64,000 bases of DNA, taken from IMG/VR virus record IMGVR_UViG_3300023184_000038, positions 32,001 through 96,000 of that record. The stretch is one strand, 5' to 3'. Under the pieces are notes generated by a model. The model was not told the DNA's origin. It was given only the letters and a program-made list of their open reading frames with translations, and made no database searches. Made by a program: the position numbers and the translations under genes. This document shows positions 13,339-49,845 of this stretch, in pieces (positions within the stretch are counted from its first letter, which is position 1; every line of letters begins with the position of its first letter). Origin of the DNA: a virus.

Positions 13339-13407
13339 GCTTTTAGATAAATCCTAAGTATCTAATACAGTGTAGTCTGATAAATACATTATATATCAGG
13401 AACACAT

Positions 13408-18991: not shown

Positions 18992-19013
18992 CTATTAATA
19001 GGAGAAATTAAAA

Positions 19014-19640: not shown

Positions 19641-19655
19641 TTAATCGTAAATTAG

Positions 19656-20879: not shown

Positions 20880-20880
20880 T

Positions 20881-21243: not shown

Positions 21244-21247
21244 TAAT

Positions 21248-21685
21248 ATGGCATCATATGCTCAGGGTTTATTTACGCCAATTAATAAACAAAAATATAT
21301 AGGAAAGAATATCCCTAAATATCGTAGTGGTTGGGAATTAACATTTATGACGTTTTGTGATTCAAATAAAAACGTATTGTATTGGGCAAGTGAATCTATA
21401 TCAATTCCATACCGACATCCTTTTAAAGGAAAAGTGGTTAATTATATTCCTGATTTTTTTGTAGTATATCAAAATAAATACGGAAAACAAATTGCTGAGA
21501 TGGTTGAAATTAAACCTAAAAAACAAAGTTTAATTGAAAGTAAAGTTGCAAGTGCAAGAGATAAAATAATTGTTGCAATAAATCATGCTAAATGGGCTAG
21601 TGCAGTAGCATATTGCAAGCATCACGGTTACACATTTAGAGTAATAACTGAAAATGAACTTTTCCACAACGGTAGAAACAAGTAA
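21248..21685 (+). CDS. gp4: Head completion nuclease (T4 gp4-like, TnsA-N fold)
   Basis: YRSGWE, WASE.I.IPY, YIPDF, EIKP..Q, N.AKW..A...C, F.VITE. Confidence 0.9.
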   Translation: MASYAQGLFTPINKQKYIGKNIPKYRSGWELTFMTFCDSNKNVLYWASESISIPYRHPFKGKVVNYIPDFFVVYQNKYGKQIAEMVEIKPKKQSLIESKVASARDKIIVAINHAKWASAVAYCKHHGYTFRVITENELFHNGRNK

Positions 21686-25800: not shown

Positions 25801-26204
25801 GCGAGTCAATTGATGAAGCTGAAACACCTGATCAAGCAGAATTTATGGCTACTGAAGATAATGCGCCGGATTCTGGTGCTCAGGAAACAACCGCTGATGT
25901 AAATGCAGGGGCGGCTGAAGATGCAGCAATAGCAAAATCAGACCAACAAAATCCAACAGTAACAACAAATGAAGATGAAATGGAAGAAGACTTAAATGAA
26001 TCATATGCTAATAGTGCTGAAAATACATTTGAGGCTGATATAGAATTTATGACTAAGGTTATAACAGGTGGTTTGAATAAACAAAAATCAACCGGTCAAT
26101 CTACTATCCCAGTCGTGGCAAGTCAAAAAAATCGTTTGGGTGAGCCAATGCAAGAATCTACTGCATTACTACATGATTGGAAAAAATTAAGTGGTATTAC
26201 ATAA
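22848..26204 (+). CDS. Large modular prohead-core / internal polyprotein
   Basis: 1118 aa, low-complexity and charged; many (L/I/V/M)xE sites; EQGMAEG and EGVAER junctions; internal DNA duplications. Confidence 0.65.
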   Translation: MNMLDLMNKMTELSEAKSTNNAFTGNWKDPDDAKGKSIIHKGKYGTAYQGEPDDLSTDDTKKTKKVAPADGEKRGRGRPAKGSDSSGKTTSHDTQSLSNFMIGNKPSKAVDKLPKTKSKTLKDWFERLDTALNEDGQFTVKPAAPGASDIMGPDGKKIGTASTPAAAQAVKNGEVNFDKEQGMAEGDIGKHNNATTGFAALVKKLTPKYGVKGAMRIAGSQMKKIKEADMPRNDSDMGAGLGAGRSQQFEGTEEDPAGPASQAADELAYKLRNPKFDAALKKIEDKYKNDSMVVRMNSQGGKQDPTRIAGILQDLALQHKRDLEVLVNYYQKYGGPTPALESKKGVNPFAKKKPDDDKDGVPNWADKKPGKDDNEGKKKGAAPMSEGGNPFAPIVNPIMNLVKGGTKVLPKPTGRPGMPPAQAARTDAVSQARLAKRNADDEMWAARQGTQPSAASTDAVSKARNAKRNADDEMWAARQGTQQPALESKKGVNPFAKKKPDDDKDGVPNWADKKPGKDDNEGKKKGAAPKKGVNPFAKKKISEGKVKDIAIDLEEMTPAEFKKKYKMTKAEMEKNMNTDTNAKKKDVTENSHNVTEKIIGQPKIDNMDNAGRGVYSGAEKTATTKHRLGSHVYEVTTEQDGDGDLYYFIYVNGKQVFYATSSGVYENKLGSRISSALLDEHKKATAQMFDSDEDEDEDDFREGVAERHQAAGKLKKQMSKSMMEGVRHSDAAHLRGKAHAMGGENYNCRYTPGTNEANMYHMGFKEGLDECYGQSPMESYVEEEFTPEGEVENMPLMTDENYMMDESPFSWAAKNTPTGKHFTLAGHDFTKTAAESMNPFMESLNNQLNALLNDDINEGMTVSISKGQQGTPDSVSVSAQDSEAEQLLSIIKSAGLSLFGSDNDSGDEHSSAMSMPGVSIADGGAELDSNINVVNDHDGMLDLIRKMTGQGPAQSDDNDYESEEHEHSHDDEEECGDCGNSPCDCESIDEAETPDQAEFMATEDNAPDSGAQETTADVNAGAAEDAAIAKSDQQNPTVTTNEDEMEEDLNESYANSAENTFEADIEFMTKVITGGLNKQKSTGQSTIPVVASQKNRLGEPMQESTALLHDWKKLSGIT
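23859..24435 (+). repeat. 139-bp exact direct repeat (23859-23997 and 24297-24435) enclosing a 79-bp near-repeat pair (24123-24201 and 24216-24294)
   Basis: Direct comparison; the 139-bp repeat encodes PALESKKGVNPFAKKKPDDDKDGVPNWADKKPGKDDNEGKKKGAAP twice. Confidence 0.95.
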
Positions 26205-34407: not shown

Positions 34408-35355
34408 ATGGTAACACGAAAAAAGAAAACAGATAATACGGAATCTAACACTATTCCAGTAGAGCAATTGCAAGAAATTGTAGAATCTATTGCTGCTGTC
34501 CCAGTGGCACCGGCCGAACCACCTGCACCGGCCGCACCACAACAAGGGCAAGTACAAGTAAACGTAGACTTTTTAAAAACTACAAGAGTTCATATCTCAA
34601 TGCCATGTTACGGCGGGATGTTAACGGAATCTACATTTATGAGTTTTATTAAATGGGCAAATACTGCTAGACAACTTGGTATTGATTGGACATTAGAAAC
34701 AATGGTCAATGAATCATTAATTAGTCGTGCTAGAAATACACTAACTGCAAAGTTTTTAGATATGCCTGAGGCAACACATTTATTTTTTGTAGATGCTGAC
34801 ATTGGATGGGAGCCATGGCATTTGTTAGTATTACTCAATCGTGACAAAGATGTTATCGGTGGATTATATCCAATGAAAACAATGCCTATTAAATGGGTAG
34901 TTAATGGATTTGAAGGTGCTGAAGAAGGACCAGATGGATTACAAGAAGTAAGTAAAGCGGGAACAGGGTTCTTATTAATGAAGAAAAATGTATTTGAAAA
35001 ATTAAAATCACATCCTGCAGTTAAACAATACAAAAATGATATTGGTCTAGACCCTAAATACGATCAACATTTAAAAACTTACTTTGATACTGCGGTACGT
35101 CAAAATCGTTATTATTCTGAAGATTGGACCTTTTGTGAAAATTACAGAGACATTGGCGGTAAAATTTGGGTAGATAAACGTGTTTTATTACGTCACAGTG
35201 GTTCTTATGTATTTTGTATGGAAAATCAAGAACATTTGATGAACACAGTTGGGCCTATGTACTTAGAACAGGAAAAACAAAAAGCAATAGTTGCTGCAAC
35301 AGCGGCTGCAGTACCCGGGACTGCCCCTTCAGGCATAGTTACATTAGCAACTTAA
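34408..35355 (+). CDS. GT-A fold glycosyltransferase-like protein
   Basis: PCYGG, ESLISRARN, FFVDADIGW, GTGFLL, SEDWTFC, H.G. Confidence 0.75.
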   Translation: MVTRKKKTDNTESNTIPVEQLQEIVESIAAVPVAPAEPPAPAAPQQGQVQVNVDFLKTTRVHISMPCYGGMLTESTFMSFIKWANTARQLGIDWTLETMVNESLISRARNTLTAKFLDMPEATHLFFVDADIGWEPWHLLVLLNRDKDVIGGLYPMKTMPIKWVVNGFEGAEEGPDGLQEVSKAGTGFLLMKKNVFEKLKSHPAVKQYKNDIGLDPKYDQHLKTYFDTAVRQNRYYSEDWTFCENYRDIGGKIWVDKRVLLRHSGSYVFCMENQEHLMNTVGPMYLEQEKQKAIVAATAAAVPGTAPSGIVTLAT

Positions 35356-35373
35356 ATTATATATTCTAAGTAA

Positions 35374-35395
35374 GAAAGGCTCTTAGGAGCCTTTC
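35374..35395 (+). terminator. Stem-loop / probable terminator
   Basis: gaaaggctc-ttag-gagcctttc. Confidence 0.55.
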
Positions 35396-35412
35396 CCATT
35401 GATAAATATAGT

Positions 35413-37218
35413 ATGGATATTAAAGAATTAAATTCGTTTAAAGTGTCAGATGCTATTACATTTCATGACCATCTTAATCCTAGGCTGTTTCACGGGAATA
35501 GATTACAACCGGCCGTTGAAAAACAATTAAAAATTATTGCCCAAGATTTTTTACAAGAATTGGGAGTATATGATATTAATGTTAAAGATATAACAGTATC
35601 TGGCTCAAATGCAGCATATAGTTATACTAAGCATAGTGATTTAGATTTACATATATTAGTTGATTTATCTGAACAGCCAAATGATGAAGTATATAAAGAA
35701 TTATTTCATGCGAAAAAAACACTGTATAATGATAGCCATGACATTAAAGTTAATGGAATTCCAGTTGAATTGTATGTTCAAGATGTTGCATTTCCAGTAA
35801 TAAGTTTAGGTGAATATAGTGTATTAAACAATAAATGGATTAAAATTCCAAATAAGCGTAGAAGTAATTTTGACCATACCGATGCTAAAGCAAAGTATGA
35901 AAAATTAGCAAAATTAATAGAATATGCGTTACATGCTAACGATTTAAAACAAGTAAAAAATGTTTTAGAAACTATTAAAAGATACCGACAAACTGGATTA
36001 GAAAAGGGCGGAGAATTTGGCCCTGAAAATATTGTTTTCAAAGCATTGCGTAGCCAAGGCTTAATTACAAAATTATACGATTTAAGAGATAAATTACATA
36101 GTAAAAAATTAAGTTTAAGCGGGATGTATCAAGAAATTGATGAGGGTTTTGATCAACCATATCCAATAATATGGGAAAAGGGTTACCATGGAGATGTTGA
36201 TGCACTTGCTAAATTACCTGATGGTACTTATTTAAGCATTATGTTTAATAAGCAAGATAATGTTAAACCTGATGACAAGACATGGATGGTTGAATTTCAT
36301 AGAAACAACAGCCAAGAAGTAACAGGGGAGGGTGATGCACAAAAAGTATTTGCTACTGTATTGTCTGCCATTCAACAATTTATTATAAAATACAAACCAC
36401 TAAAAATATATTTCTCAGCAAGCAAAGAACCAGCGCCACTGAAACTCAGTAGCCCTGCTGGTGCTAAAGCAAACCCTGAAAGTCGTGCCAAGTTATATGA
36501 TAGATTAGTACTCCGTTATGCTAAATCTTGGGGATATAAGTTTTTCCGCGCTGACAATGGTTCTGATGTTATGTATCAATTTTCAAGAATACCAAAGCAA
36601 AAGACTGTGGGTGAAGATTACACTGGGCAATATGCTGCTGAAAAAACTCCAGTTGTAAGTCCTTATGCCGGCATCAAGGATAATCAATATCGTGGTGGGA
36701 TAAGTGAAGCAGCAGACATGGATTTTGAAGAAGGTGATTGTCCTATATTTGCCATTGCGTTACATCGTCTATCTAAGTTGCCATTAATGGCATTAGTTGA
36801 ATATGATGAAGAACTAGGTAGTACAGTATTAATCCATGCGTATGTAAAACTTGATGATAGATGGCGTCTGGATATCACTGGTGAAACAGATGTAGATTGG
36901 ATGTTACAAAAATATCCAAACAATGGTAACGCCGAAGAAATTGAGATTGGTGAGAAAGATTTGTTAGAATTGGGGTATGGAAAAAGCAAATGTCCTACTT
37001 TGCAACAGGTTCTACCCCATGCTAAAGAAGTTTTACAAAATATAAATGAAGCAAGTGGGTATATTCCAAGCGAAAAACAAAAGAATGATCCACGATTTAA
37101 GACGGCACTAACCGTAGATATTAGGCCAGATGCTATCAAAAAGAATGCAAAAGCATTTTATTGGAACACTAGTCGTGCCGGAATCCCTCCAACGGCAAAA
37201 GCAAACGGCAAAATATAA
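35413..37218 (+). CDS. Modular protein: N-terminal Pol-beta-superfamily nucleotidyltransferase plus several xxE-delimited modules
   Basis: SGSNA.Y.Y...SDLDLH, VELYVQD; junctions EIDE, TVGE, ISEA, INEA. Confidence 0.7.
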   Translation: MDIKELNSFKVSDAITFHDHLNPRLFHGNRLQPAVEKQLKIIAQDFLQELGVYDINVKDITVSGSNAAYSYTKHSDLDLHILVDLSEQPNDEVYKELFHAKKTLYNDSHDIKVNGIPVELYVQDVAFPVISLGEYSVLNNKWIKIPNKRRSNFDHTDAKAKYEKLAKLIEYALHANDLKQVKNVLETIKRYRQTGLEKGGEFGPENIVFKALRSQGLITKLYDLRDKLHSKKLSLSGMYQEIDEGFDQPYPIIWEKGYHGDVDALAKLPDGTYLSIMFNKQDNVKPDDKTWMVEFHRNNSQEVTGEGDAQKVFATVLSAIQQFIIKYKPLKIYFSASKEPAPLKLSSPAGAKANPESRAKLYDRLVLRYAKSWGYKFFRADNGSDVMYQFSRIPKQKTVGEDYTGQYAAEKTPVVSPYAGIKDNQYRGGISEAADMDFEEGDCPIFAIALHRLSKLPLMALVEYDEELGSTVLIHAYVKLDDRWRLDITGETDVDWMLQKYPNNGNAEEIEIGEKDLLELGYGKSKCPTLQQVLPHAKEVLQNINEASGYIPSEKQKNDPRFKTALTVDIRPDAIKKNAKAFYWNTSRAGIPPTAKANGKI

Positions 37219-37273
37219 CTAACTTCAGTTACATGGGGTTTTTGATAAATACATTATCAGTACGGAACCTTAT

Positions 37274-37960
37274 ATGAAAATAACACAAATCACAGAAACT
37301 ACTACTAGCGGAAGTATTTCCCCGGTCGCCACTGTATTAGGGGCAACTCATACACGAGGAAATCCTAGTATATATGGCGGAAAAAAAGTTAAAAGTATGT
37401 TTTCTGGTAAAAAAACTAAAGAACCATATGGTAATAGCCTTCATGAAGGCGTTGAAATTAGTGAACAAGATTTGATTATGATGCCGGGACTAGGTAATAA
37501 AATAAATCCCGGCTTTATTAGTAAGCAAGATGATAGAACAGATAATGAAATTGCAATGGCTATAAATGATTTGTTTCAATCTGGTAGAAATGCTGAAAAA
37601 ATTTATAAAATGATTGAAGGCCGTAGTGAAGAAGTTGGTCTTGAGGGTTGGGTACAAGAAAAGATTATTAAAGCAAGTGACTATTTAAATACTGTTCGTG
37701 AATATTTAGAAGGACAAGAAATGTCAACTGTAGATGAAGGGCGACCGTTTAGGGGAGTTGATGGTGCATTTGACAGGGGAGATGATGAACGGCATGACTT
37801 AGACAGACCAAGAAAATGGCATGTAGTTATTGATGGAGATATTCAACCCCAAGGATTTAGTGACAGAGAAGATGCAAATATAGCCGGGCACAAAACACTT
37901 GCTGCCAATCCTAATTCTAGAGTAACTCTTAAACAAAAATGGGCGGATGACTATGAGTAA
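37274..37960 (+). CDS. Modular head-cargo-like protein (MKITQITE N-terminus)
   Basis: ORF; late promoter GATAAATA at about 37244; LHE and VDE junctions. Confidence 0.6.
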   Translation: MKITQITETTTSGSISPVATVLGATHTRGNPSIYGGKKVKSMFSGKKTKEPYGNSLHEGVEISEQDLIMMPGLGNKINPGFISKQDDRTDNEIAMAINDLFQSGRNAEKIYKMIEGRSEEVGLEGWVQEKIIKASDYLNTVREYLEGQEMSTVDEGRPFRGVDGAFDRGDDERHDLDRPRKWHVVIDGDIQPQGFSDREDANIAGHKTLAANPNSRVTLKQKWADDYE

Positions 37961-39599
37961 TATCTTTGCAGGAATTTTGCTTAATGAATTATCAACTGAT
38001 AAATTAGCAAAATATAAAACAGCAGCCAGTGCGGATGCTACTAAATCTGATCAAGAAGGTAACTTCAAGCGCGGAGATAAAAGATTTAGTGGTATTGTAA
38101 AAGCAACTAATAAACAATTTGCAAATGATGCTAAAAAAGTTAAATTACCGGAAACAGTAACCGATGATGAAGATGATGATTATGTAGAACCGCCGAAGTC
38201 CGGAATTGATAAATTCCGCACTGCAGCTAGTATGGCCAATCTTGCTTTGACTCCGGCAATGTTAGCACAAACGGTTAGTACTGGAGCAAATGCATTAAGT
38301 AAACCCGCTGCTGCAGCAAGCGCCGCAAAGGTAGCGGCAAATCTAGGAGGTAGATTGCTCCCGGCGGCCGGCGCGGCACTTAGCGCGGCCTCAGCCGCAC
38401 ATAGAGCAAGTTTGGGTGATTATACTGGATCCGCGATTGATGCAGCCTCAGGCGCTGCATCTTTTGCCCCGGGCTGGGGAACAGCTGGTTCAATAGCTGG
38501 TATAGGTACTAACTTATTACGAGACCGGTGGAACACTGGTAATTGGTTCCCGACGGATGAACAACTGAAGGCAGCATACGGTAAAAAACCAGATGCACAA
38601 GTAGCACAAGGAGCAAAATCTGCCGCACCTGCACAAGCAGCAAAATCTGCCACTCCTGCACAAGCTGCAGCGCCGGTTGCAAAAACTACAGCCCCAGCCG
38701 CAAACACCAAGGGCTCTTGGCAAGAAATTTACAATTTAAATAAAACAATCATTGGGGCTAATCCCAATCTAATTAAACCGGGACAAAAATTAACATTGCC
38801 AAATGGCACAGTATACACAGTTAAACCCGGGGACTCTCTTAGTAAAATTGCAGCACAATCGGTACAAGAATCAATTTATATGCAATATGATAAAGTACCG
38901 TCTTCCATTATGTATGGTTTACTTGAAGCTAGTCAACAGTCAGCATCAATTAATATACCAAGCGGTCGTGGAATGAGTCCACTAGAGTGGCTGGCATCAT
39001 TAAGTAATAATCCTGACGCAGCAGTTGCCGGCGCTTCCCCTTCAAGGATTAAACCGGCTGGTGCTGCCTCTTCAAGGATTAAGCCGGAAGTTGGTGCTGA
39101 CCATGTAGATAGCACTGTCACTAGCAATACAGGTGACAATATGAGTAAAGCAAAACAATCTGCTGAACAATTCTTAGGTCGTAGAATTAGCAATGATGAA
39201 TGGGACCTTTTACTACGAGCAGTTACTGCTGAAGCAAGCGGCAACACAAAAGAGCAAGCCTGGGTAATGGGTGTTATATTAAATAGAGCTAGGTCAGGCC
39301 GTTGGGGAAGTAGTATCAATAAAGTATTATATGCACCAAACCAATTTCAAGCAGTGACTGGTACTAAGTATAATAGCAATCCAAGTTCTAACTTTACTAG
39401 AGGCCCAAATGCATCTCAACTAGCATCTATTGTAAAAGGTGCTATAGAAGTATTGCCAAATGTAGATCCATCAGTAATGAATTTTACAGCGGCTAATAGT
39501 GCTGCTTATGGAAGAGGCACTAATATTAATTTTAGAAATAAGTTAGCCGCAAGATCAGGCAGTCAACAAATTGGCCAAACTATATTTGGCACCGCATAA
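37947..39599 (+). CDS. Modular protein with LysM domain and C-terminal SleB/Hydrolase_2 cell-wall hydrolase
   Basis: NPNLIKPGQKL, YTVKPGDSLSKIA; AEA.G..EQAWV..VILNR, V.YAPNQFQAV. Confidence 0.8.
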   Translation: MTMSNIFAGILLNELSTDKLAKYKTAASADATKSDQEGNFKRGDKRFSGIVKATNKQFANDAKKVKLPETVTDDEDDDYVEPPKSGIDKFRTAASMANLALTPAMLAQTVSTGANALSKPAAAASAAKVAANLGGRLLPAAGAALSAASAAHRASLGDYTGSAIDAASGAASFAPGWGTAGSIAGIGTNLLRDRWNTGNWFPTDEQLKAAYGKKPDAQVAQGAKSAAPAQAAKSATPAQAAAPVAKTTAPAANTKGSWQEIYNLNKTIIGANPNLIKPGQKLTLPNGTVYTVKPGDSLSKIAAQSVQESIYMQYDKVPSSIMYGLLEASQQSASINIPSGRGMSPLEWLASLSNNPDAAVAGASPSRIKPAGAASSRIKPEVGADHVDSTVTSNTGDNMSKAKQSAEQFLGRRISNDEWDLLLRAVTAEASGNTKEQAWVMGVILNRARSGRWGSSINKVLYAPNQFQAVTGTKYNSNPSSNFTRGPNASQLASIVKGAIEVLPNVDPSVMNFTAANSAAYGRGTNINFRNKLAARSGSQQIGQTIFGTA

Positions 39600-39609
39600 G
39601 GAATTATAA

Positions 39610-40050
39610 ATGTTAGCAGAAAATTTAAAAGTATTATTGGCAAGTGTTAACTCATTGTCTATCAAAGCACAAAACTTTCACTGGAACGTGGAGGGAGATA
39701 ACTTCCCTCAATATCACGAATATCTTGGTAATTTCTATGAAGAAGTATACAGTGCAGTAGATAAAATTGCTGAATACATTCGTACATTAGATAGTTATAG
39801 TCCAGGAAGCTTAACACGCTATACTGAATTAACAATCATTCAAGATCAACTTAAAATCCCTCGTGCCGAATTAATGTTTGTTGAATTGTTTGAAGATAAT
39901 GGCAAGATGATTGAATTACTTAATCATTGCTTTAGTTCTGCTACAGAAGAAAATAAACAAGGTATTGCTAACTTTATCGCTGAAAGATTAGATGCTCACG
40001 AAAAACATCAATGGCAGCTTAGAAGTATATTAAAAACTACAAGAGCATAA
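39610..40050 (+). CDS. dps: Dps / ferritin-like DNA-protection protein
   Basis: HWNVEG..F..YH.....YEE....D.IAE.IR, HEKHQWQL. Confidence 0.92.
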   Translation: MLAENLKVLLASVNSLSIKAQNFHWNVEGDNFPQYHEYLGNFYEEVYSAVDKIAEYIRTLDSYSPGSLTRYTELTIIQDQLKIPRAELMFVELFEDNGKMIELLNHCFSSATEENKQGIANFIAERLDAHEKHQWQLRSILKTTRA

Positions 40051-40075
40051 TATATATTTACCATAAGGAATTATA

Positions 40076-40495
40076 ATGCGATTATATGAAATAGAACCTA
40101 GACCTAGTATAGAGAAACAATTTGACCTTATTGAGAGTATGGTTGAAAGTTTTGCAAAACATCATAATGTTGACAGTGAGATAATATGGGAAGATTTAGA
40201 ATCAGTTGATGATTATGAATTATTGGTTGAAGCCGCTGCCTGGAGAACCAGTAAAGGAAAAAGTAAAAAAGGTGGATTAAACGCTAAAGGTGTAGCAAGT
40301 TATCGTAGAGAAAATCCTGGCAGCAAGTTGCAAATGGCAGTTACCACTAAGCCAAGCAAATTAAAGCCAGGCTCAAAAGCAGCCAAACGTCGGAAATCAT
40401 TTTGTGCAAGAATGGGCGGCGTTAAAGGACCAATGAAGAAACCTAACGGTGATCCCACACGCAAAGCATTGGCTTTACGCAAATGGAACTGTTAA
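40076..40495 (+). CDS. Acidic leader plus basic C-terminal module (GGLNAKG..RRKSFCARM)
   Basis: MRLYEIE N-terminus; LVE junction before the basic module. Confidence 0.65.
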   Translation: MRLYEIEPRPSIEKQFDLIESMVESFAKHHNVDSEIIWEDLESVDDYELLVEAAAWRTSKGKSKKGGLNAKGVASYRRENPGSKLQMAVTTKPSKLKPGSKAAKRRKSFCARMGGVKGPMKKPNGDPTRKALALRKWNC

Positions 40496-41130
40496 TGAGA
40501 GCAAATGAAATAACAATAGATGACTCACAATCTCTTGTTGAATTTAGCAAGACTGATGCGGGTATACACAAAGAATTAATAGCCAAAGGATATAAACCTA
40601 TAGGCAAGCCGGGTGTGGATCAAACTGCATATATTGAACCGCGCAGCGGCATGATTCTCAAAATATTTGGGACTCGTCCAGGAAGTAAAACTTTTACAAA
40701 AGATCAAAAAATGTTTTTTATCTGGGCTAAATTTTGTATGGATAATTCATCTAACTTATTTTTACCACGATATTATGGGCATGAAAGTTTTAATTATAAC
40801 AATTCATTATATTTACAAATTCGTACTGAGAGATTGCAACACAATCCTAAATTAGGTCGTGCGGTTTCTAGTCTAGGCGAATATGCCAGTATTGGTTCTA
40901 TGGATGCACGTGGCACCTTGGATTATTTTGTAAAAAATCAACCTCAGCGAAGTTATTATGAAACAATAAAACAAACAATTGGCGAAGAAAATGTGATACC
41001 GTTGTTAAATACACTAGGCAACTTGTATAAAATTGCTAGTAAAAAGGGATATATGTGGGACCTGCACTCAGAAAATGTCATGACCAGAACCAATGGATGG
41101 CCAGTGATCAATGATCCTTGGACTATATAA
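40495..41130 (+). CDS. Protein-kinase-like domain with capsid-targeting-like N-terminus
   Basis: MRANEI; G.DQTAY, ILKIF, WDLHSENVM, PVINDPW; TAATG-coupled start at 40495. Confidence 0.7.
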   Translation: MRANEITIDDSQSLVEFSKTDAGIHKELIAKGYKPIGKPGVDQTAYIEPRSGMILKIFGTRPGSKTFTKDQKMFFIWAKFCMDNSSNLFLPRYYGHESFNYNNSLYLQIRTERLQHNPKLGRAVSSLGEYASIGSMDARGTLDYFVKNQPQRSYYETIKQTIGEENVIPLLNTLGNLYKIASKKGYMWDLHSENVMTRTNGWPVINDPWTI

Positions 41131-41133
41131 TAT

Positions 41134-42522
41134 ATGAGAGCAAAAGAATTTATTGTTGAAGCATTGACTCCAGAACAAACATCAAAACTGTTCCAACAGT
41201 TGGGTGTGAAATGGGATACTAATATTCATAACGCTATTTTTAACGGTAAATCACGAATATATATTCCAATGCCATCACAAATAGCAAACACTACTGTATC
41301 CCCAACACAACATAAAATTGAAAATACATTGTCTGACATTGGTTATCAAATAGCAGACTATGCTGCAGGGATAGCACAAAAGAAAAATGATCCAACTAGA
41401 AAAATTAAAATTGGTAAACTACTTACAGATAAATCATTACTACAAACATTTGCCAATGATCCGTACCGAGCCGCATCTACACAATCTAATGAGTTAGAGG
41501 TAGTGATATCTCGTGACCCAGTAGATATTGCTGGTATGAGTACTGACCGAGGTTGGACTAGTTGTATGAATCTAGACGGTGGAGAGAATAATAGATATGT
41601 ACCAACAGAAATACGGAACGGGGCAATTATTGCGTATTTAATTAGAAAGACTGATAAGAACATTGATAAGCCATTGGCACGAATATTGTTAAAACCTTAC
41701 TATTTTAAAAATCATATAATTTTAAATCCAGACAAAGTATACGGCACTGCTCCTGCATCATTTAACGAAGTAGTGAATGATTTTTGCAATAACGTTAATA
41801 GTAATAGTCCAGAAGGAGATTATAGACTACCCGGCGGTTGTTATCGAGATAGCGCAGAATATGTCATGCATCTTAAAGACTACAGTGATTTTAGTGGATT
41901 TACTGTTGCCAACCGAAAGATTATTGCCAACAACCCCAATAGCCCAATACAAGCATTAGTTAAGTTGGCCAAGGATGAAGATCCCGGGGTAAGAGAGATT
42001 GTAGCCAGTCGTGCAGCTTGTCCACTTGAAGTGTTAATTGAGTTGTCGACGGATAGCAACAGTACTGTAAGGTGGAGGGTGGGGTTGAATCAAAAAACAC
42101 CAAAAGACATATTAGTTAATTTAGCCAAGGATCAGGAGCCGGAGGTACGAGTAGGTGTAGCCGCTAACCGCCGAGCTTCAGATGAAGTGTTAGTTAGTTT
42201 AGCCAATGATCCAGAGGAAAATATTCGAGGAGAAGTGGCAAAAAATATCAATACTCCAATCAAAGTTTTGGTCCAGTTGAGCAAGGACCAAAACGTTTTG
42301 GTAAGATATGTGTTGGCTCGTAGTCCTAGTTGTCCAAGCAATATATTGTCTGAGTTGGCTAATGATGAAGTAGGAATGGTAAGAGCTGCTGTAGCCGGGA
42401 ACCGCAGTGCTCCGGGTGAAGTGTTAGCTAGGTTAGCAAACGATGCTTCTTGGAAGGTGAACGGCGTTGCAAAAGAAACGATTCACTGGATCACAACACA
42501 AGAGAAAAATAACAATTTATGA
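41134..42522 (+). CDS. MRAKEFIVE protein with conserved central domain and C-terminal LRV/HEAT-like repeats
   Basis: MSTDRGWTSCM domain; 24-aa repeats L..LA.D....VR..VA.N...P. Confidence 0.7.
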   Translation: MRAKEFIVEALTPEQTSKLFQQLGVKWDTNIHNAIFNGKSRIYIPMPSQIANTTVSPTQHKIENTLSDIGYQIADYAAGIAQKKNDPTRKIKIGKLLTDKSLLQTFANDPYRAASTQSNELEVVISRDPVDIAGMSTDRGWTSCMNLDGGENNRYVPTEIRNGAIIAYLIRKTDKNIDKPLARILLKPYYFKNHIILNPDKVYGTAPASFNEVVNDFCNNVNSNSPEGDYRLPGGCYRDSAEYVMHLKDYSDFSGFTVANRKIIANNPNSPIQALVKLAKDEDPGVREIVASRAACPLEVLIELSTDSNSTVRWRVGLNQKTPKDILVNLAKDQEPEVRVGVAANRRASDEVLVSLANDPEENIRGEVAKNINTPIKVLVQLSKDQNVLVRYVLARSPSCPSNILSELANDEVGMVRAAVAGNRSAPGEVLARLANDASWKVNGVAKETIHWITTQEKNNNL

Positions 42523-43679
42523 GAGCAAAAGAATTTATTGTTGAAACTGCTATGATGGGCAAGATTGCAGACTCGGGCAAAATTATTCGCATCTTGAAGA
42601 AAGCACACACCGTGCCATTCAGTGATGAAAAAAACTGGTTGCTGGTAGATACTGATCCTGGCAAAGGCAACAGTGGACTGGGTATCAAATGGATTCCGGC
42701 CGACACAAGATTTGAATGGGTAAGACCTTATAAAGATAGTGTAGATGAAAACTTGTCTCCGCAGACCATACACAAATTGGCAGACCACAAAGGTGTAAAA
42801 TGGGATGACGAACCCAGTTTCCTTCAACTTACCAAACGATTAACAGGCAAAGAACATTTGGATGACTTAGATCAAGCAGGGTTGAACAAAGTTAAAAAAC
42901 ATTTGGATGGGTTGCAAGGGGTGGCGGAAGGCGGTGCCGAAACAAGTTGGTCCAATGACACCGATACAATTACACTACAGGATATTTTAGAATTAACCAA
43001 ACATATTAAACAAATAAATTTACCAATTAACGATAATCTAAAGAGTAAACTACTTCATTGGGAAGGTAACCCAGAAGAAATAGAAAGAGTTAATCAAGTA
43101 ACGGTGTCTAACCAATTTCCTATTTTAATTATGGTGGATGAGCAAGGTCAAATAGCCTGGATACTCGATGGCAACCATAGACTACACAAGGCAATACAAT
43201 CACAAGCAAAAACAATACCTGCTAAACTTATTAGACCCAGCAACCTTGATGATAAAGCAAAGAAAATATTTAATATAAAAGAGCAAGGTGTGGCGGAAGG
43301 CTCCGAGAACAATAATACAACAGCACAAAAAATATTCTTTGCTCGTAGTAATAAAACACCCAAAGGATGGAGTTATGACCATGTTGGATTTATAACTCAA
43401 GATGGAAAACAAATTCAAATGAGTGGGCATAAAGGCAATGATGTATATGTCACTAACGATGTGACTGATGATCCGGAGTTTCCTAAACAAAATATCAAAA
43501 TTGTATCATTATCAAAACCAGTATCGGTGCCTACAACTAACTCAGTAGGAGCAGAAAATTGTGGAACATTTGTGGCAAATGTATTACAAGCCAATGGTAT
43601 AAAAGGTATTGATACACAAAAAATATATAGTGTGTTCAAAAAACCTCAAGAGCAAGGTGTGGCGGAAGGCTTAAAATAA
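42519..43679 (+). CDS. MRAKEFIVE polyprotein: small modules, ParB/Srx-like module and permuted papain-like (H..C) module, joined by QGVAEG
   Basis: ILDGNHRL; DHVGF...NCGTFV; three QGVAEG linkers. Confidence 0.7.
   Translation: MRAKEFIVETAMMGKIADSGKIIRILKKAHTVPFSDEKNWLLVDTDPGKGNSGLGIKWIPADTRFEWVRPYKDSVDENLSPQTIHKLADHKGVKWDDEPSFLQLTKRLTGKEHLDDLDQAGLNKVKKHLDGLQGVAEGGAETSWSNDTDTITLQDILELTKHIKQINLPINDNLKSKLLHWEGNPEEIERVNQVTVSNQFPILIMVDEQGQIAWILDGNHRLHKAIQSQAKTIPAKLIRPSNLDDKAKKIFNIKEQGVAEGSENNNTTAQKIFFARSNKTPKGWSYDHVGFITQDGKQIQMSGHKGNDVYVTNDVTDDPEFPKQNIKIVSLSKPVSVPTTNSVGAENCGTFVANVLQANGIKGIDTQKIYSVFKKPQEQGVAEGLK
42915..43670 (+). repeat. Three copies of the module-junction word (GAG)CAAGGTGTGGCGGAAGGC at 42915-42932, 43281-43301 and 43650-43670
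   Basis: Direct reading; 43281-43301 and 43650-43670 are identical 21-mers. Confidence 0.95.
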
Positions 43680-43680
43680 A

Positions 43681-44574
43681 ATGAGAGCAACTGAATTTAT
43701 TACCGAGGAACACGAGCCAACCCGAATCAAACTTGGTAACAACGATGCCGCTAAGGCTTGGATTGACCGAGTCTACACAAAATATCCACATACCATGCAA
43801 AACAACCATGTCATGGTTTGGGGGTCAGGCGATGACCAACAGTTTGCTATGTTTGAACTGATACCTAGTTTTAGTAAACGCGGTGCAGTTGAAGTCAAAT
43901 GGTTTCAAGCATATCCTTTACGACAAGGCGTTGGATCACGTGCCATGCAAGAATTGCAGGCTATGGCCCGCGAAGATGGCATTGCTCTTACTTTATTCCC
44001 CTGGGACAAAGGACAAGTAAGTCAAAGTAAACTAACCAAGTTCTATCGAGGTCAAGGGTTTAAGCCCACCGTGAAGGGCAGCAAAAGCATGGCATGGACA
44101 CCAGAACTAAATGAAGCCGAACTCAGCATAGATGTACCTAACGAAGAATGGTTACAGGAAAAGATAGACTATGCCAAACGCAAAGGCCGCAATAGTTTTG
44201 GCGTGCCTTATATGGGCAGCACCACTGCTTATGTTCAAGGAACACCGTTAAAAGCTCGTGTGATGAGATTGGCTTCTTTGCCGGGCATGAGGAACGAACA
44301 AACCAATGTGCGTCAAAATGACCTAAAGTGGTTAATGGATTACATGGACCGAACAGGTAAGTTACCACCTATGAAAACCAGTTCCGACGATGAGTACATG
44401 CCCTACATCATGGTAGCCTACAATGGTGAAGCATGGGTCAACGAAGGTAATCACCGTATCATGGCCGCATATAGATTAAACTGGCAGACCATGCCCATAC
44501 AACTTGCTTACTTTGATGGCGGAGAACGTGTGGAAAGTGGTGCCATGTATCCAGGCAAGATTGGACTAGCATGA
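43681..44574 (+). CDS. MRATEFITE polyprotein: GNAT acetyltransferase plus ParB/Srx-like module
   Basis: RQGVGSRAM and LTKFYRGQGF (GNAT motifs); LNE junction; NEGNHRI. Confidence 0.72.
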   Translation: MRATEFITEEHEPTRIKLGNNDAAKAWIDRVYTKYPHTMQNNHVMVWGSGDDQQFAMFELIPSFSKRGAVEVKWFQAYPLRQGVGSRAMQELQAMAREDGIALTLFPWDKGQVSQSKLTKFYRGQGFKPTVKGSKSMAWTPELNEAELSIDVPNEEWLQEKIDYAKRKGRNSFGVPYMGSTTAYVQGTPLKARVMRLASLPGMRNEQTNVRQNDLKWLMDYMDRTGKLPPMKTSSDDEYMPYIMVAYNGEAWVNEGNHRIMAAYRLNWQTMPIQLAYFDGGERVESGAMYPGKIGLA

Positions 44575-46070
44575 GAGCAAACGAATTCATAACCGAAATA
44601 TTTCAACCTGGTAAGAAAAACTGGGAATGGATACGCAGAGATAACACATACGCCAGTGCTCGTTTTAGTGTTGGCGATAGAACTTATACTTGGCAGGCGC
44701 ATGGTGCGGAATCCGATAATGATGGCCCTACTCATTGGATTCTTGAATTTAGAATTGAACGAGAATTAGCCGATCCTGACAGGTTAGATGTTTGGGGTAA
44801 GACTGGTACAGGTAACTCAGCAGAAGTAATGTCAACCGCAGTTGATATTACCCGTGAATTCATTAAAGAGTATGGTGATAAAATATCAGAATTAACTTTT
44901 GATGCCAAAGAAGATTCTCGTATTGGATTGTATGCTAAGATGATTGCACGTTTACTACCTGGGTGGGAATTGAATCAAACATACAATAAAAACTTTGGTA
45001 TGGAGTTTCGTTTAACTAACCCTAAATCAAATGAATTTATCACAGAGAGTTCGCAACAAACTACCTTACGACAACTGTACGGTGGTAACTATCCAGATCG
45101 TGATGAAGAATTTTGGGACTATGTGTCATCTAGTGAATTTGATCAACCATTGACAGTTGAAACAATGGCAAAACATAAAGTATTGATTATGTTACTCAGT
45201 CAATATCGTGCAGAACATATTGATGACATAACTGATATGTTAGATGATGATCAACAAGCAATTGTACAATCATATGTTAATGATCCGGCACTAGCAAGCA
45301 AAATAATAGTTGTTGCTAACAATAGAATCATTGATGGTAATCATCGTGCATTAGCTGCTGCAATCAAAGGTGTACCTATTAATTATGTTGATTTATCTGA
45401 ATTAGAAGAAGAACCGATAGATGAAGCAGAAACAGACACACCAAACGCTAGAGAGATATCAAAACAACTAAGAGCGGTAGGTTATTCACATGTAGGGTCT
45501 GGTGCTGATGCTACTGTTTGGGCAAAAGATGATAGTCATGTAATTAAGATATTGATGCCAGAAGATGCAGGTAGTAAAGCAGAACAAGTATTTCGTAAGT
45601 TTTATGAATTTTCAATGAGCCGGCAAGATTTGGCGTGTGTTCCTAGATTCAATGAAGTAACCACGATTGATATTAACGGTAAAGATTATACTCAGATTGA
45701 GATGGAGAAATTATCTTCTATTCCCAAAGGTTCGTTTGTTGAGGGTTTAATTTGGTTCCTGAGTGATTACACTAGTTCTCCTGAATCATGGGAAACAATA
45801 GAGCGTGAACTAGCAGACCCAAACACATGGAAAAATTACATCCCACAATATGCTAATGCATTTGCTAAAGTTTGGCAAAGTCTACTAGAAAATCCTGCAA
45901 GTAAAAAAACATATGCTATGTACAAACAGCTATATACTGTAATGCAAATATTATATAACACAGGCAGAATCAACAAATTTGGATGGGATTTGCATACAGC
46001 AAATGTCATGCTAAGACAGAACGGACAACCGGTAATAATTGATCCGTGGTTTAGTGAAGGTACATCCTAA
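44571..46070 (+). CDS. MRANEFITE polyprotein: unknown module, ParB/Srx-like module and protein-kinase-like module
   Basis: Internal SNEFITE; IIDGNHRA; GSGADATVW, VIKI, WDLHTANVM, PVIIDPW. Confidence 0.72.
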   Translation: MRANEFITEIFQPGKKNWEWIRRDNTYASARFSVGDRTYTWQAHGAESDNDGPTHWILEFRIERELADPDRLDVWGKTGTGNSAEVMSTAVDITREFIKEYGDKISELTFDAKEDSRIGLYAKMIARLLPGWELNQTYNKNFGMEFRLTNPKSNEFITESSQQTTLRQLYGGNYPDRDEEFWDYVSSSEFDQPLTVETMAKHKVLIMLLSQYRAEHIDDITDMLDDDQQAIVQSYVNDPALASKIIVVANNRIIDGNHRALAAAIKGVPINYVDLSELEEEPIDEAETDTPNAREISKQLRAVGYSHVGSGADATVWAKDDSHVIKILMPEDAGSKAEQVFRKFYEFSMSRQDLACVPRFNEVTTIDINGKDYTQIEMEKLSSIPKGSFVEGLIWFLSDYTSSPESWETIERELADPNTWKNYIPQYANAFAKVWQSLLENPASKKTYAMYKQLYTVMQILYNTGRINKFGWDLHTANVMLRQNGQPVIIDPWFSEGTS

Positions 46071-46088
46071 TATATATGACTTATAAGA

Positions 46089-46179
46089 ACACCCTTAGGA
46101 CCAGTACTAGTTACTGTAAGTGTGAGGCGGCTGCTGCCTATATAACCCAATTCGCTACTGGGAAGTATAAAGTGAGCAT
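46089..46179 (+). ncRNA. Candidate structured intergenic RNA (multi-stem, possible pseudoknot)
   Basis: GC-enriched intergenic stretch; stems cagta/tactg, aggcgg/ctgcct and ccca/tggg; loop tcgct is complementary to downstream agtga. Strand not established. Confidence 0.45.
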
Positions 46180-46197
46180 TAATTTGATAAATACATA

Positions 46198-46770
46198 ATG
46201 CGTTATACTGAGTTTATTATTGAATCTCCTGCAACTGAATTGGCTAAAAAATTGCCATCTTTGGATAAACATGATTATGATACTATTGATAGATTAATGT
46301 CAACTATAGCAAAAAGACATCGTATTACTGGTAAAGCATTGCACGATTTGTTTATTAAAAAATATCATCGGTCACCGGATGATTGGATTAAAAGCAAATT
46401 GGATGAAAATACATCATTGGATATTCAAGACGAAGTGGATAAGTTTTGTAATTGGGCTTGTCAAAAATTAAAAATTAAAACTAAACCGTACATAGAATTA
46501 AGTATGGATACTGAAGAAGCACAAAATAATCATCATACCGGAGGTCATGTCCCCGGTGAAAATAATATATGGGTTTATGCAAAAAATCGTAATTTAGTAG
46601 ATATTTTACGCACGGTGTTTCATGAATTGGTTCACGTACGGCAAGGTGAATTAAATATGATTACCCCAGGATCTAGTTATCCGGGTAGCCCAATTGAAGC
46701 CTTAGCAGATTTAATGGCCGGAAAATATATTAAAATTTACGGCAAACAACATCATAATATTTTTCAATAA
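46198..46770 (+). CDS. MRYTEFIIE protein with HEXXH zincin metallopeptidase-like module
   Basis: LRTVFHELVHVRQ...E..A; LDE junction. Confidence 0.7.
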   Translation: MRYTEFIIESPATELAKKLPSLDKHDYDTIDRLMSTIAKRHRITGKALHDLFIKKYHRSPDDWIKSKLDENTSLDIQDEVDKFCNWACQKLKIKTKPYIELSMDTEEAQNNHHTGGHVPGENNIWVYAKNRNLVDILRTVFHELVHVRQGELNMITPGSSYPGSPIEALADLMAGKYIKIYGKQHHNIFQ

Positions 46771-46821
46771 ATTGAAATAATATACTACGCCCGTTTTTAT
46801 CATAAAAGGTAAACAAACTTA

Positions 46822-46850
46822 TTGACTTTAAGATCCTACTACTGTATAAT
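46822..46850 (+). promoter_or_regulatory. sigma70 promoter for the replication operon
   Basis: TTGACT-17 nt-TATAAT. Confidence 0.8.
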
Positions 46851-46873
46851 CTATCATTAACAAGGAGATTGCA

Positions 46874-47134
46874 ATGAGTGATAGAATTTTTAGTGGCGCA
46901 GAAAAAATTAAACTTACCCAGTTGGTAAATGAGGGCATGAATGTATTGAATGAAATTGAAACACTCAACGGAGGTTTGTCCGATACAGTCAAAGCAGTTG
47001 CTGAAGAAATGGAAATTAAAGCAAGTACTTTGAAAAAAGCAATCAAAATTGCCCATAAAGCAAGTTTAGGGCAAACTAATAAAGACCATGACGAACTTAA
47101 CCACATTCTTGAACTAGTAGGCAAAACACTTTGA
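46874..47134 (+). CDS. Small dsDNA-binding protein (T4 DsbA/GapR-like)
   Basis: Helical 86 aa, L.DTVKAVAEE..IK...LKKAI.IAHK; directly upstream of the polymerase. Confidence 0.6.
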   Translation: MSDRIFSGAEKIKLTQLVNEGMNVLNEIETLNGGLSDTVKAVAEEMEIKASTLKKAIKIAHKASLGQTNKDHDELNHILELVGKTL

Positions 47135-49845
47135 GTTATGTAGATGCTGTATTAGATAAAAATACAGATAAAATAATTGTAATTGAAAGAGATGGCAAGG
47201 GTGTACGCCAGTACAATGAATTCCCTGCCAATTATGTACTTTACTTTACTGACCCTAAAGGCAAACATCGTAGTTTATATGGTGATCCGGTAACTAGGTT
47301 CTCAACACGAAGTCGCGGCGAATTTGAAAAAGAACGTAGAATTCTTGCTAATAAAAAAATCTTTGAAAGCGATATTAACCCTATTTTTCGTTGTTTGAGC
47401 GAAAACTATTTAAACGTTGACGCACCAAAATTACATACTTGCTTTTTTGACATCGAAGTTGATTTCAATTCAGAAAAAGGATTTAGTCCAACTAGCGATC
47501 CCTTCAATCCGGTTACTGCTATCTCACTTTACTTAGATTGGTTAGGTCAATTAGTTACATTAGTAATTGCTCCCACACATATGAGTAGTGAGACCGCACA
47601 ACAGATTACTAGTGAAATTGAAAATACAATGTTATTCACTAATGAAATAGAAATGTTTGAAACATTTTTTACATTGATTGAAGATGCTGATGTATTAACT
47701 GGATGGAACTCTGAGGGATACGATATACCATATATGGTTAATCGTGTTACTAGGATAATGAGTAAAAATGATACTAGAAAATTTTGTTTATTGGGACAAC
47801 TTCCCAAACCTAGAGTATATGAAAGATATGGTAAAGAGGAAACTACATATGACTTAGTTGGACGAGTACATTTAGACTATTTACAACTTTACAAAAAATA
47901 TAACTATGAATCTAGACATAGTTATAAACTTGATGCCATTGGTGAAATGGAAGTAGGGGAAAATAAAACTCAATACGAAGGTACACTTGATCAATTATAT
48001 AACAAAGACTTTAAAAAGTTTATTGAATATAATAGGCAAGATACAATGTTATTAGTTAAAATTCATAATAAACTACAGTTTTTAGAACTTGCTAATCAAA
48101 TAGCACATGAAAATACTGTGTTGTTACCAACGGTTATGGGCTCGGTTGCTATGATTGAAATGGCAATTATGAATGAGGCTCATGCCCGCGGAGTAGTTAT
48201 TCCAGATAAAAAACGAAAGGTCGAAAATGCAGAAGAAACACAACCAGCGGCAGGTGCCTATGTTGCTACTCCCAAAACGGGAATTCATGAATGGGTCGGC
48301 GCAGTGGACATCAATTCGCTCTACCCCTCAGCAATCCGCGCTCTTAACATGTCCCCGGAAACCATTGTTGCTCAGGTCAGACAAACTTTAACTGATCAGT
48401 ACATGCTTGATAAAAGTCAACGCTTGGCACGTGAGAAAAAACGACATAAAGAAGGTGATGATGATGTTACTGGCAGTGTGCTTTGGGAAGGGCTATTTGG
48501 TAGTTTGGAATATACCTCAATTTTAAATCAAGATAGAGGTATGATGCTAACATTGGACTATGCTGACGGAACTGAAGTTGAAATGAGTGCGGCCGAAATA
48601 TGGAAATTACTATTTGATAGTAATAATCCATATATGATTAGTGCTAATGGTACTATCTTTACTCACGCAAATGAAGGTGTTATTCCAGGATTATTATCTA
48701 GGTGGTACTCGGATAGAAAAGTAATGCAGAAAAAACTTAAAGAAGCCACAACTACTGAAGATAAAGATTATTGGGATAAACGTCAACTTGTTCGTAAGAT
48801 TTTGTTGAACTCTGCATATGGTGCATTGTTGAATGAACATTGCAGATTCTATGACAAACGTATTGGTCAAAGTGTAACATTATGTGGTAGGCAAATTGTA
48901 AAACACATGAGTGCTCACATTAATGAAATTATCACAGGTAACTACGATTTCACAGGTCAAGGAATAGTGTATGGTGATACTGACTCTTGTTATTTTAGTG
49001 CATGGCCTGCAGTAAAAACAGAAGTTGAAGAAGGTAAAATGGAATGGTCAAAGGAAACTTGTATCGGATTGTATGATGGTATTGCCGAGCAAATTAACAT
49101 AGAGTTTCCTGTTTTTATGGAAAAAGCATTTCATTGTCCAAGAAAAAACGGATCTATTATTCGTGCTGGAAGAGAACTAGTAGCAGACCGTAGTTTGTTT
49201 ATTACTAAAAAAAGGTATGCAGTAAACATTTATGATAAAGAAGGTAAACGTTTAGATAAAGATGGTAAAATGGGATATATTAAAGCCATGGGTCTTGATT
49301 TAAAACGTGCTGATACCCCTAAATATGTACAAGAATTTTTAATGTCGGTATTAACACTGGTTTTATCTGGCAAGCAACGTGATGATGTTATAGAAATTAT
49401 TAAAACCTTTAAGCATGAAATGAGCCTGCAGGAAAGTTGGACTAAAGGTAGTCCGAAATCAGTTAACAAACTTACTGCATATGGCAATAAAGAAGAAAAT
49501 AGTAAAACAGGTAAGGCAAATATGCCAGGACATGTACGTGCTGCACTAAACTGGAATACTTTACGTAGAGTGCATAATGATAACTATTCAATGAAAATAA
49601 TGGATGGTATGAAAGTAGTTGTATGTAAATTAAAACAAAATCCAATGGGATATACTTCTATAGCATATCCTACTGATGAATTAAGATTACCGGTCTGGTT
49701 CAAAGAATTACCATTTAATGATGATGGAATGGAACGCACATTGATTGATGAAAAAATAGAAAATTTATTGGGCGTATTGTCTTGGGATTTACGTAGTAGC
49801 ACTGATACTAAATCAACTTTTGATGATTTATTTTCATTTGGTTAA
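47131..49845 (+). CDS. gp43: Family B DNA polymerase (gp43-like)
   Basis: Exo motifs FFDIEV, GWNS.GYD, YN.QD; Pol motifs DINSLYPS, KILLNSAYG, YGDTDS, KKRY; TTG start. Confidence 0.97.
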   Translation: MSYVDAVLDKNTDKIIVIERDGKGVRQYNEFPANYVLYFTDPKGKHRSLYGDPVTRFSTRSRGEFEKERRILANKKIFESDINPIFRCLSENYLNVDAPKLHTCFFDIEVDFNSEKGFSPTSDPFNPVTAISLYLDWLGQLVTLVIAPTHMSSETAQQITSEIENTMLFTNEIEMFETFFTLIEDADVLTGWNSEGYDIPYMVNRVTRIMSKNDTRKFCLLGQLPKPRVYERYGKEETTYDLVGRVHLDYLQLYKKYNYESRHSYKLDAIGEMEVGENKTQYEGTLDQLYNKDFKKFIEYNRQDTMLLVKIHNKLQFLELANQIAHENTVLLPTVMGSVAMIEMAIMNEAHARGVVIPDKKRKVENAEETQPAAGAYVATPKTGIHEWVGAVDINSLYPSAIRALNMSPETIVAQVRQTLTDQYMLDKSQRLAREKKRHKEGDDDVTGSVLWEGLFGSLEYTSILNQDRGMMLTLDYADGTEVEMSAAEIWKLLFDSNNPYMISANGTIFTHANEGVIPGLLSRWYSDRKVMQKKLKEATTTEDKDYWDKRQLVRKILLNSAYGALLNEHCRFYDKRIGQSVTLCGRQIVKHMSAHINEIITGNYDFTGQGIVYGDTDSCYFSAWPAVKTEVEEGKMEWSKETCIGLYDGIAEQINIEFPVFMEKAFHCPRKNGSIIRAGRELVADRSLFITKKRYAVNIYDKEGKRLDKDGKMGYIKAMGLDLKRADTPKYVQEFLMSVLTLVLSGKQRDDVIEIIKTFKHEMSLQESWTKGSPKSVNKLTAYGNKEENSKTGKANMPGHVRAALNWNTLRRVHNDNYSMKIMDGMKVVVCKLKQNPMGYTSIAYPTDELRLPVWFKELPFNDDGMERTLIDEKIENLLGVLSWDLRSSTDTKSTFDDLFSFG

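Follow-up and report, generated by a model that had tools for sequence, protein, structure and literature searches.

Internal proteins of phage T4 carry at their N-terminus a peptide, MKTYQEFIAE, termed the capsid-targeting sequence (CTS), which steers them, or any protein fused to it, into the scaffolding core and is removed afterwards (Mullaney & Black 1996, as cited in PMC5694885; PMC3012670; 10.1101/2021.01.19.427310). The ip loci of T-even phages that encode such proteins are hypervariable, with at least 10 internal proteins (Ips) recognised by their signal sequence, and Ip1–3 inhibit GmrSD type IV restriction enzymes (PMC12373910). For polyvalent proteins, which combine 2 to 15 effector-type domains per polypeptide in variable order, packaging and injection have been predicted (Iyer et al. 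2017, PMC5512222). In giant phages of the phiKZ/SPN3US type, a T4-related prohead protease processes many of the proteins inside the head, and their injection is presumed (PMC5694885). Here we analyse a stretch of 64,000 nucleotides of viral DNA (hereafter the window), bases 32001–96000 of the 143,665-bp IMG/VR contig IMGVR_UViG_3300023184_000038 (CheckV completeness 41%), in which seven consecutive genes start with versions of a nine-residue peptide, M-R-A-x-E-F-[ILV]-x-E. We propose, with a probability of about 0.7, that this peptide is the T4-type capsid-targeting and cleavage tag of a phage clade, carried by an exchangeable set of injected enzymes.

The seven genes (A–G, Table 1) follow one another on the + strand at 40076–46770, and a check of the open reading frames (ORFs) bears out all seven starts listed in the original prediction, as well as its observation that the two MRAKEFIVE starts are identical in DNA sequence: those of genes C and D have exactly 27 nt in common. 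Five genes, C to G (41134–46770), fit the strict consensus M-R-x-x-E-F-I-x-E, and the same five have the core of a T4-type CTS, E-[FL]-[ILF]-x-E, at their extreme N-terminus. The tags of A and B are degenerate; the ORF of B opens at 40483, and its tag Met lies at 40495. A six-frame regular-expression scan of the whole contig found the motif at an ORF start only in genes B to G, the three other matches lying more than 100 codons inside their frames. Two starts elsewhere in the window that had been put forward as similar, at 22206 (MKSLKYYITE) and 37274 (MKITQITE), have only M-K and I-T-E in common with the tag and are loose resemblances, since E5 and F6 are missing; both are preceded by the same promoter-like word.

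The window encodes a 1184-aa tail sheath protein, a tail tube protein, virion structural proteins, PhoH, a 754-aa ATP-dependent protease (29827–32091, 8 kb upstream of the array; phrog_4871, E = 4.5 × 10−236) and a family-B DNA polymerase, whose best matches among cultured phages are the jumbo myoviruses Phosso, Atu_ph07, CBB and GAP32 (42–50% identity). Relatives of this polymerase are found on more than 590 uncultured contigs, and among the 80 best most are 77–82% identical to it. This gene content and these polymerase matches indicate that the source is an uncultured T4-related jumbo myovirus near Atu_ph07 and GAP32, with a genome of roughly 350 kb.

To count tagged proteins, we covered loci collected around polymerase homologues plus further tag-bearing contigs. 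In 80 loci around polymerase homologues we identified 49 distinct tagged proteins belonging to 16 unrelated groups, and a degenerate DNA pattern for the tag matched more than 120 further viral contigs. All loci combined yielded 232 distinct tagged proteins in 42 BLAST-unlinked cargo groups, among which conservation collapses beyond residue 9. Position 7 is I, L or V in 231 of the 232 proteins and position 9 is E in 227, two positions that are partly fixed by the search pattern itself. The 232 genes contain 220 different 27-mers; synonymous codons are used freely at A3, E5, F6, I7 and E9, and M1, E5, F6 and E9 are nearly invariant as amino acids. This freedom indicates that the peptide, rather than a DNA or RNA signal, is under selection, and led us to reject a signal in DNA or RNA as the only origin of the conserved start. 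The degenerate DNA pattern matched 20 times in five large related genomes (2–6 in each), compared to none for a reversed-pattern control. Among the best 120 homologues of gene F, the strict tag is present in 70 and a variant of it in most of the others.

Comparison with T4 shows that the tag closely resembles, in sequence, a known head-targeting signal. We scanned the T4 genome with the pattern M-x4-E-[FL]-x-x-E and with a control pattern, and obtained six matches for the former and none for the latter; five of the six are gene starts (Table 1) and one lies inside gene 16. The products of ipII, ipIII, alt and gene 24 recovered in this way are known head-targeted, gp21-cleaved proteins. The remaining start belongs to gp61.1 (NC_000866, 18966–19130), a 54-aa hypothetical protein with a CTS look-alike start and no internal-protein annotation in the record. 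Sites of the gp21 type follow the rule [IL]-x-E, with the cut after Glu. The window's tag is the same word as the T4 CTS with one residue fewer before the first Glu, and has the same [ILV]-x-Glu ending.

A gp21-type protease (Peptidase_S77) is encoded in all five of the large tag-bearing genomes (G001–G005, 191–525 kb; E = 10−25 to 10−30), where it is part of a portal–protease–scaffold–capsid module; the polymerases of two of these genomes, G004 and G002, are 77% and 65% identical to that of the window, respectively. In G002 the order is portal, acidic protein, protease, scaffold-like protein and major head protein. The commonest tagged family, a conserved tandem pair of ~125-aa genes with 88 members ending in SPV..FKGY(K/P)(K/R), occurs in G001–G005; in G002 (L227:8122–8879) it immediately precedes a virion structural protein and is close to the large terminase, which parallels the adjacent ipII and ipIII of T4. 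The likeness to the T4 CTS asserted in the original prediction therefore holds, and more strongly than could be foreseen, given the T4 scan, the 42 cargo groups, the protease in every large tagged genome and the late-promoter-like words ahead of the array described below. Two other genes of this module have distinctive starts in G001–G005 (loci L201–L205): the acidic protein of ~250–280 aa between portal and protease starts M-x(1-3)-KFE(Q/K)LI(E/D), which is loosely tag-like, and the scaffold-like gene after the protease starts M(L/F)DAIKPLL..(L/I)I(N/T)E.

A comparison of the locus among relatives, which the original prediction had suggested as a check, indicates that tagged genes are exchanged as cassettes. 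When compared with locus L057, the array stands out as a variable island, with a conserved Dps-like gene on one side and gene G plus the polymerase on the other, and it is hypervariable between phages whose polymerases are 98–100% identical (L001, 100%; L002, 98%). Homology with L001 and L002 breaks at 44587 and 45028, each of which lies in a tag, and at 43651, at the last QGVAEG word of gene D. In L002 the downstream part of F is a separate 349-aa gene starting MRAKEFITESSQQT, with DNA homology from 45028; in the window the two genes are fused in F, and the fused and separate forms fall into one 90%-identity cluster. At the joint, F retains an internal relic of the tag, which looks like a flexible linker because its predicted local distance difference test (pLDDT) score is below 50; both the relic and the N-terminal tag are predicted to be disordered in the structure model of F, as would suit an accessible signal. 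We consider it most likely, from these sequence comparisons, that the DNA of the tag doubles as a crossover point at which cassettes are swapped, fused and split among related phages.

The modules of D recur singly in other proteins (80–99% identity), and occur in hundreds of other orders and combinations. The QGVAEG linker that follows each of them is encoded by CAAGG(T/G)GTGGCGGAAGGC, which is also found in genes at 22848–26204 (+) and 62314–64059 (−) of the window and at 98159–99748 (−) of the contig. One relative starts MRAVEFVTEQGVAEGS, with the tag followed directly by the linker. A tentative extension, which we regard as possible but doubtful, is that tag and QGVAEG linker form a two-signal cassette system in which both would serve as crossover points and as prohead-protease sites, so that tagged polyproteins would be loaded, cut inside the head (including at the relic in F) and injected.

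Kinases, GNAT, ParB/Srx, permuted papain-like and HExxH peptidase modules and HEAT-like repeats had been named as cargo in the original prediction. Kinase (by profile and fold), GNAT fold and LRV/HEAT repeats stood up to analysis, whereas the ParB/Srx (D, E, F), papain/CHAP-like (D) and HExxH (G) calls are at the level of motifs or sub-threshold matches. Structure prediction, which had been suggested for each module, was run on F (two models, mean pLDDT 71 and 83); it recovered a kinase fold and, at borderline scores, a GNAT fold, and did not confirm ParB/Srx by fold. For the protein-kinase-like part of F (aa 290–470), the matching profile is phrog_15752 (E = 1.5 × 10−9), Foldseek against the PDB returned APH/FN3K (2 × 10−5), 50 of 50 VIA rows are kinases (Z = 6.6–8.6), and the BFVD matches are kinases of T7-like phages (about 10−7). 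In the family alignment of this domain G149, G151, D153 and the W-D-L-H run are invariant and K166, N318 and D331 nearly invariant; the match to Kinase-PolyVal (PF18762, E = 0.008) is below the cut-off. The stand-alone protein B is 30% identical to this domain and keeps the WDLH..N and NDPW motifs. A protein-kinase fold like that of T7 gp0.7 is well supported for F by these models and profiles, and B resembles it in profile and motifs. The models also support a GNAT fold for F aa 15–152, for which all 50 VIA rows listed belong to the acetyltransferase superfamily (GNAT fold; Z = 7.1–8.9, borderline by VIA's own note), Pfam gave a sub-threshold match to DUF6934 (E = 0.0045), and fused homologues carry PF00583. 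The DGNHR domain between the two (aa 161–280) is confidently modelled (pLDDT about 90); both fold-search lists were filled by GNAT or kinase matches, and the domain is known by its motif.

Among the other cargo proteins, (D/E)GNHR follows a hydrophobic strand in D and E as it does in F, and no Pfam or NCBIfam match to ParB/Srx was obtained for these modules of D, E and F. PDB matches of the profile of D module 2 are sulfiredoxins only (E about 0.1), and module 3 of D has sub-threshold matches to CHAP (E = 0.045) and to TIGR02594 (E = 0.0015), the latter being the only match in NCBIfam searches with module segments. MAFFT alignments of whole D with shuffled homologues misaligned module 2 and were set aside. 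Gene E has a sub-threshold match to GNAT (E = 0.008) and a match to the ParB-like phrog_1033 (E = 0.0048). Single-sequence PDB searches with D, E, F and G gave nothing significant. The C-terminal half of C matches LRV (PF01816, E = 1.4 × 10−25, 88.3 bits against a cut-off of 21.6) and HEAT (E = 2.4 × 10−11), and the nearest named Atlas cluster to its N-terminal domain is PcfJ (0.83, one weak row), which we take as a lead only. Within the latter domain, the 68 nt at 41524–41591 (aa 131–153, ...DRGWTSCMNLDG) match, with 79% identity, hypothetical genes from jumbo phages of Dickeya and Erwinia (JA29 and pEa_SNUABM_2/39), and we read this segment as a conserved motif of the domain. Relatives of A with a full tag exist, for example MRANEIITEKWS, which carries PF19846. 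The N-terminal module of gene G turns up again as part of a composite protein (724 aa) in cyanophage S-SCSM2R, and its HExxH module as a stand-alone protein in S-SRM01. Searches of a cultured-phage collection at the DNA and protein level with the array and with E, F and G found no close relatives, and only short module matches in pelagiphages and cyanophages.

T4 late promoters have the consensus TATAAATA. Of 21 occurrences of a word resembling it, TGATAAATA, 11 lie at most 40 nt upstream of an ORF start, compared to 0.87 expected by chance. Written as TGATAAATA(C), the word is present at window positions 13378, 18983, 22178, 27227, 35400, 37243, 46185 and others, mostly before structural genes, and it also precedes the genes at 35413 and 37274 and gene G. 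The stretch from 35000 to 47300 shows no enrichment of sigma-70-like sites, with 41 present where 43 would be expected, and no terminator-like site was found on its + strand; a strong sigma-70-like site, TTGACT-17-TATAAT, is present only after gene G, ahead of replication genes. These words, the lack of sigma-70 enrichment and the absence of + strand terminators are consistent with late transcription of the array.

If the tag works as in T4, each protein would be docked by it onto the scaffolding core of the growing prohead late in infection, and a gp21-type prohead protease would then cut after the final Glu of the [ILV]-x-E site. The mature cargo would stay in the head, enter the next cell with the DNA, and could take effect in the host ahead of all phage transcription. 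Several points weigh against this reading. The degenerate tags of A and B appear to be decayed versions, and both proteins may escape targeting. Scans of five cultured relatives for the strict tag pattern (Phosso, Atu_ph07, CBB, GAP32 and Vibrio phage 2.275.O) gave no match, so that no cultured model with the tag is at hand. QGVAEG-linked modules occur with or without an N-terminal tag, and not all module shuffling is therefore tied to head targeting. Kinases of the T7 gp0.7 type are classically early cytoplasmic proteins and not virion proteins. The late-promoter reading of TGATAAATA is a resemblance between words, which makes these sites candidates. Finally, the prohead protease (PF03420) was not found on the window's contig, an absence that is uninformative given the 41% completeness of the contig and control genomes that are without PF03420 as well.

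The conserved start could also be a recombination junction only, encoding a peptide that has no targeting role. The breakpoints with L001 and L002 in two tags and at the last QGVAEG word, the 27 nt identical between C and D, and the fusion in F with a tag relic at its joint all speak for a junction. A pure crossover site would, however, conserve bases, yet the codons vary freely, with 220 27-mers in 232 genes encoding nearly invariant M1, E5, F6 and E9. Because the match to head-targeted genes of T4 would be left unexplained as well, and recombination is better understood as an additional function of the tag than as its only one, we consider a junction without targeting very unlikely. Another fate in the cell would be implied if the tag were a degron or a recognition site for a cytoplasmic protease, or a feature that boosts translation initiation, on effectors made early or in the middle of infection and acting in the cytoplasm. 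Such a protease is at hand in the 754-aa ATP-dependent protease encoded upstream of the array, and T7-like phages make their gp0.7-type kinases early; but the tag has at its end an [ILV]-x-E site such as gp21-type proteases cut and equals the T4 CTS minus one residue, it is present on a core gene pair in the head and packaging module, and late-promoter-like words, with no enrichment of sigma-70-like sites, lie upstream. A translation signal, moreover, would not fix amino acids across synonymous codons, and we judge these cytoplasmic roles improbable.

Loading through the tag would likewise be expected if the proteins worked in the prohead, in assembly, in scaffolding or in condensing or modifying DNA, and were then degraded or retained. 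The T4 vertex protein gp24 has the same kind of N-terminus, the acidic protein upstream of the protease in G001–G005 starts in a tag-like manner, and the tagged family with the most members is a small gene pair that is conserved, not variable. On the other hand, hypervariability among phages with 98–100% identical polymerases is typical of conflict genes and not of assembly components, and the cargo domains (kinase, GNAT, ParB/Srx-like and peptidase-like) match the predicted injected repertoire of polyvalent proteins, so that we assign a low probability to a function confined to the head. Injection of the tagged enzymes is the reading that we prefer.

Upstream of the array, 35413–37218 encodes a 601-aa composite protein whose N-terminus recurs in linker-type composite proteins (e.g., P0195, MNLKELNSFKLS), and 37947–39599 encodes a 550-aa composite protein, separate segments of which match several endolysin-family PHROG profiles. 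Both are in one apparent late unit with the array, from which they are separated by the Dps/ferritin-like gene at 39610–40050. In the related genome G004 (524,565 bp), we found two full copies of the DNA polymerase, at 18719–21433 (+) and 508479–511193 (−), each 77% identical to that of the window; either a genuine duplication or an error of assembly could account for them.

Table 1. Array genes and associated sequence features of the window (window coordinates), and T4 gene starts that match the pattern used for the T4 scan
Feature	Position	Strand	Description
Gene A	40076–40495	+	139 aa; MRLYEIE; C-terminal DUF6321 (PF19846, E = 2.7 × 10−22, above cut-off)
Gene B	40495–41130	+	211 aa; MRANEITID; stand-alone kinase-like protein (phrog_15752, T7 gp0.7-type kinase, E = 0.0016)
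Gene C	41134–42522	+	462 aa; MRAKEFIVE; C-terminal LRV/HEAT repeats
Gene D	42519–43679	+	386 aa; MRAKEFIVE; three modules, aa 1–132, 139–255 and 262–378
QGVAEG linker after D module 1	42915–42932	+	in-frame
QGVAEG linker after D module 2	43284–43301	+	in-frame
QGVAEG linker after D module 3	43653–43670	+	in-frame
Gene E	43681–44574	+	297 aa; MRATEFITE; GNAT-like N-terminal half, EGNHR (ParB/Srx-like) motif in C-terminal half
Gene F	44571–46070	+	499 aa; MRANEFITE; GNAT-fold module, tag relic, DGNHR module, kinase-like domain
Internal tag relic NEFITE	45030–45047	+	F aa 154–159; joint of two fused cassettes
Gene G	46198–46770	+	190 aa; MRYTEFIIE; helical N-terminal module, C-terminal HELVH (HExxH) module
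TGATAAATA word	37243–37251	+	before the gene at 37274; candidate late promoter of the unit running into the array
TGATAAATA word	46185–46193	+	4 nt before gene G; candidate late promoter
T4 ipII and ipIII			both MKTYQEFIAE; adjacent genes
T4 alt			MELITELFDE
T4 gene 24			MAKINELLRE; annotated gp21-cleaved; vertex protein
T4 gene 61.1			MKTFKEFIKE

If the tag works as it does in T4, the proteins delivered ahead of phage gene expression could be listed from sequence for an uncultured jumbo-phage clade, and the pre-made set would consist of protein kinase, acetyltransferase-like and ParB/Srx-like modules instead of small inhibitors, which would point to host takeover or anti-defence activities in the first minute of infection. 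The modules of polyvalent proteins, so far only predicted to be packaged, would gain a delivery route; under the two-signal proposal the injected proteome of the clade would be readable from sequence and polyvalent proteins would gain such a route as well. A nine-residue tag distinct from that of T4 might also serve, independently of the latter, as a second means of bringing foreign proteins into phage heads.

In the literature, we found no description of such a tag outside T4-like coliphages or on cargo of this type, and we read the array as a known mechanism, that of the T4-type CTS, in a different form and on different cargo. Both peptides are short, begin at the initiator Met, have the core E-F-I-x-E ending in Glu, and are common to otherwise unrelated proteins, one of which is an enzyme in T4 (Alt); in both, tandem small tagged genes occur and the lineage has a gp21-type protease. 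The window's tag differs in having nine residues instead of ten and R-A at positions 2–3, and in belonging to a distant jumbo lineage near Atu_ph07 and GAP32, where it is known from sequence alone. Its cargo consists mostly of multi-domain enzymes of 190–500 aa, compared to small inhibitors in T4, and the original description of the array as richer than the T4 internal-protein locus is accurate for cargo size and enzyme content, and not clearly so for gene number. Like the T-even ip loci, the array is a hotspot of unrelated genes that have only a presumed packaging leader in common and that differ among close relatives; unlike them, its cassettes are enzyme modules fused and split at the leader, and it is flanked by a Dps-like gene and the DNA polymerase.

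Domains of polyvalent proteins include Kinase-PolyVal, DdrB-like ParB and the MPTase zincin. Comparison with these proteins points to corresponding kinase (weak Kinase-PolyVal match), ParB/Srx-like, zincin-like HExxH, papain/CHAP-like and acetyltransferase modules, and D, E and F each contain two or three modules in an order that varies across relatives, as polyvalent proteins do. The latter, however, are mostly single giant polypeptides that often stand in a MuF or portal context and lack a defined targeting peptide, whereas in the window the modules are distributed among several genes, every one of which starts with a T4-type tag. In the kinase of F (and B), the Gly-rich loop, the lysine of VIK, D-L-H-x-x-N and I-D-P of T7 gp0.7 (phrog_15752) are retained, but gp0.7 is made early from injected DNA, whereas the window's kinase bears a predicted head-targeting tag and is joined in one protein to modules with a GNAT fold and a DGNHR motif. 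Finally, the ejection proteins of phiKZ/SPN3US-type phages have propeptides of more than 100 residues that differ from protein to protein, whereas the window's tag is single, short and common to all.

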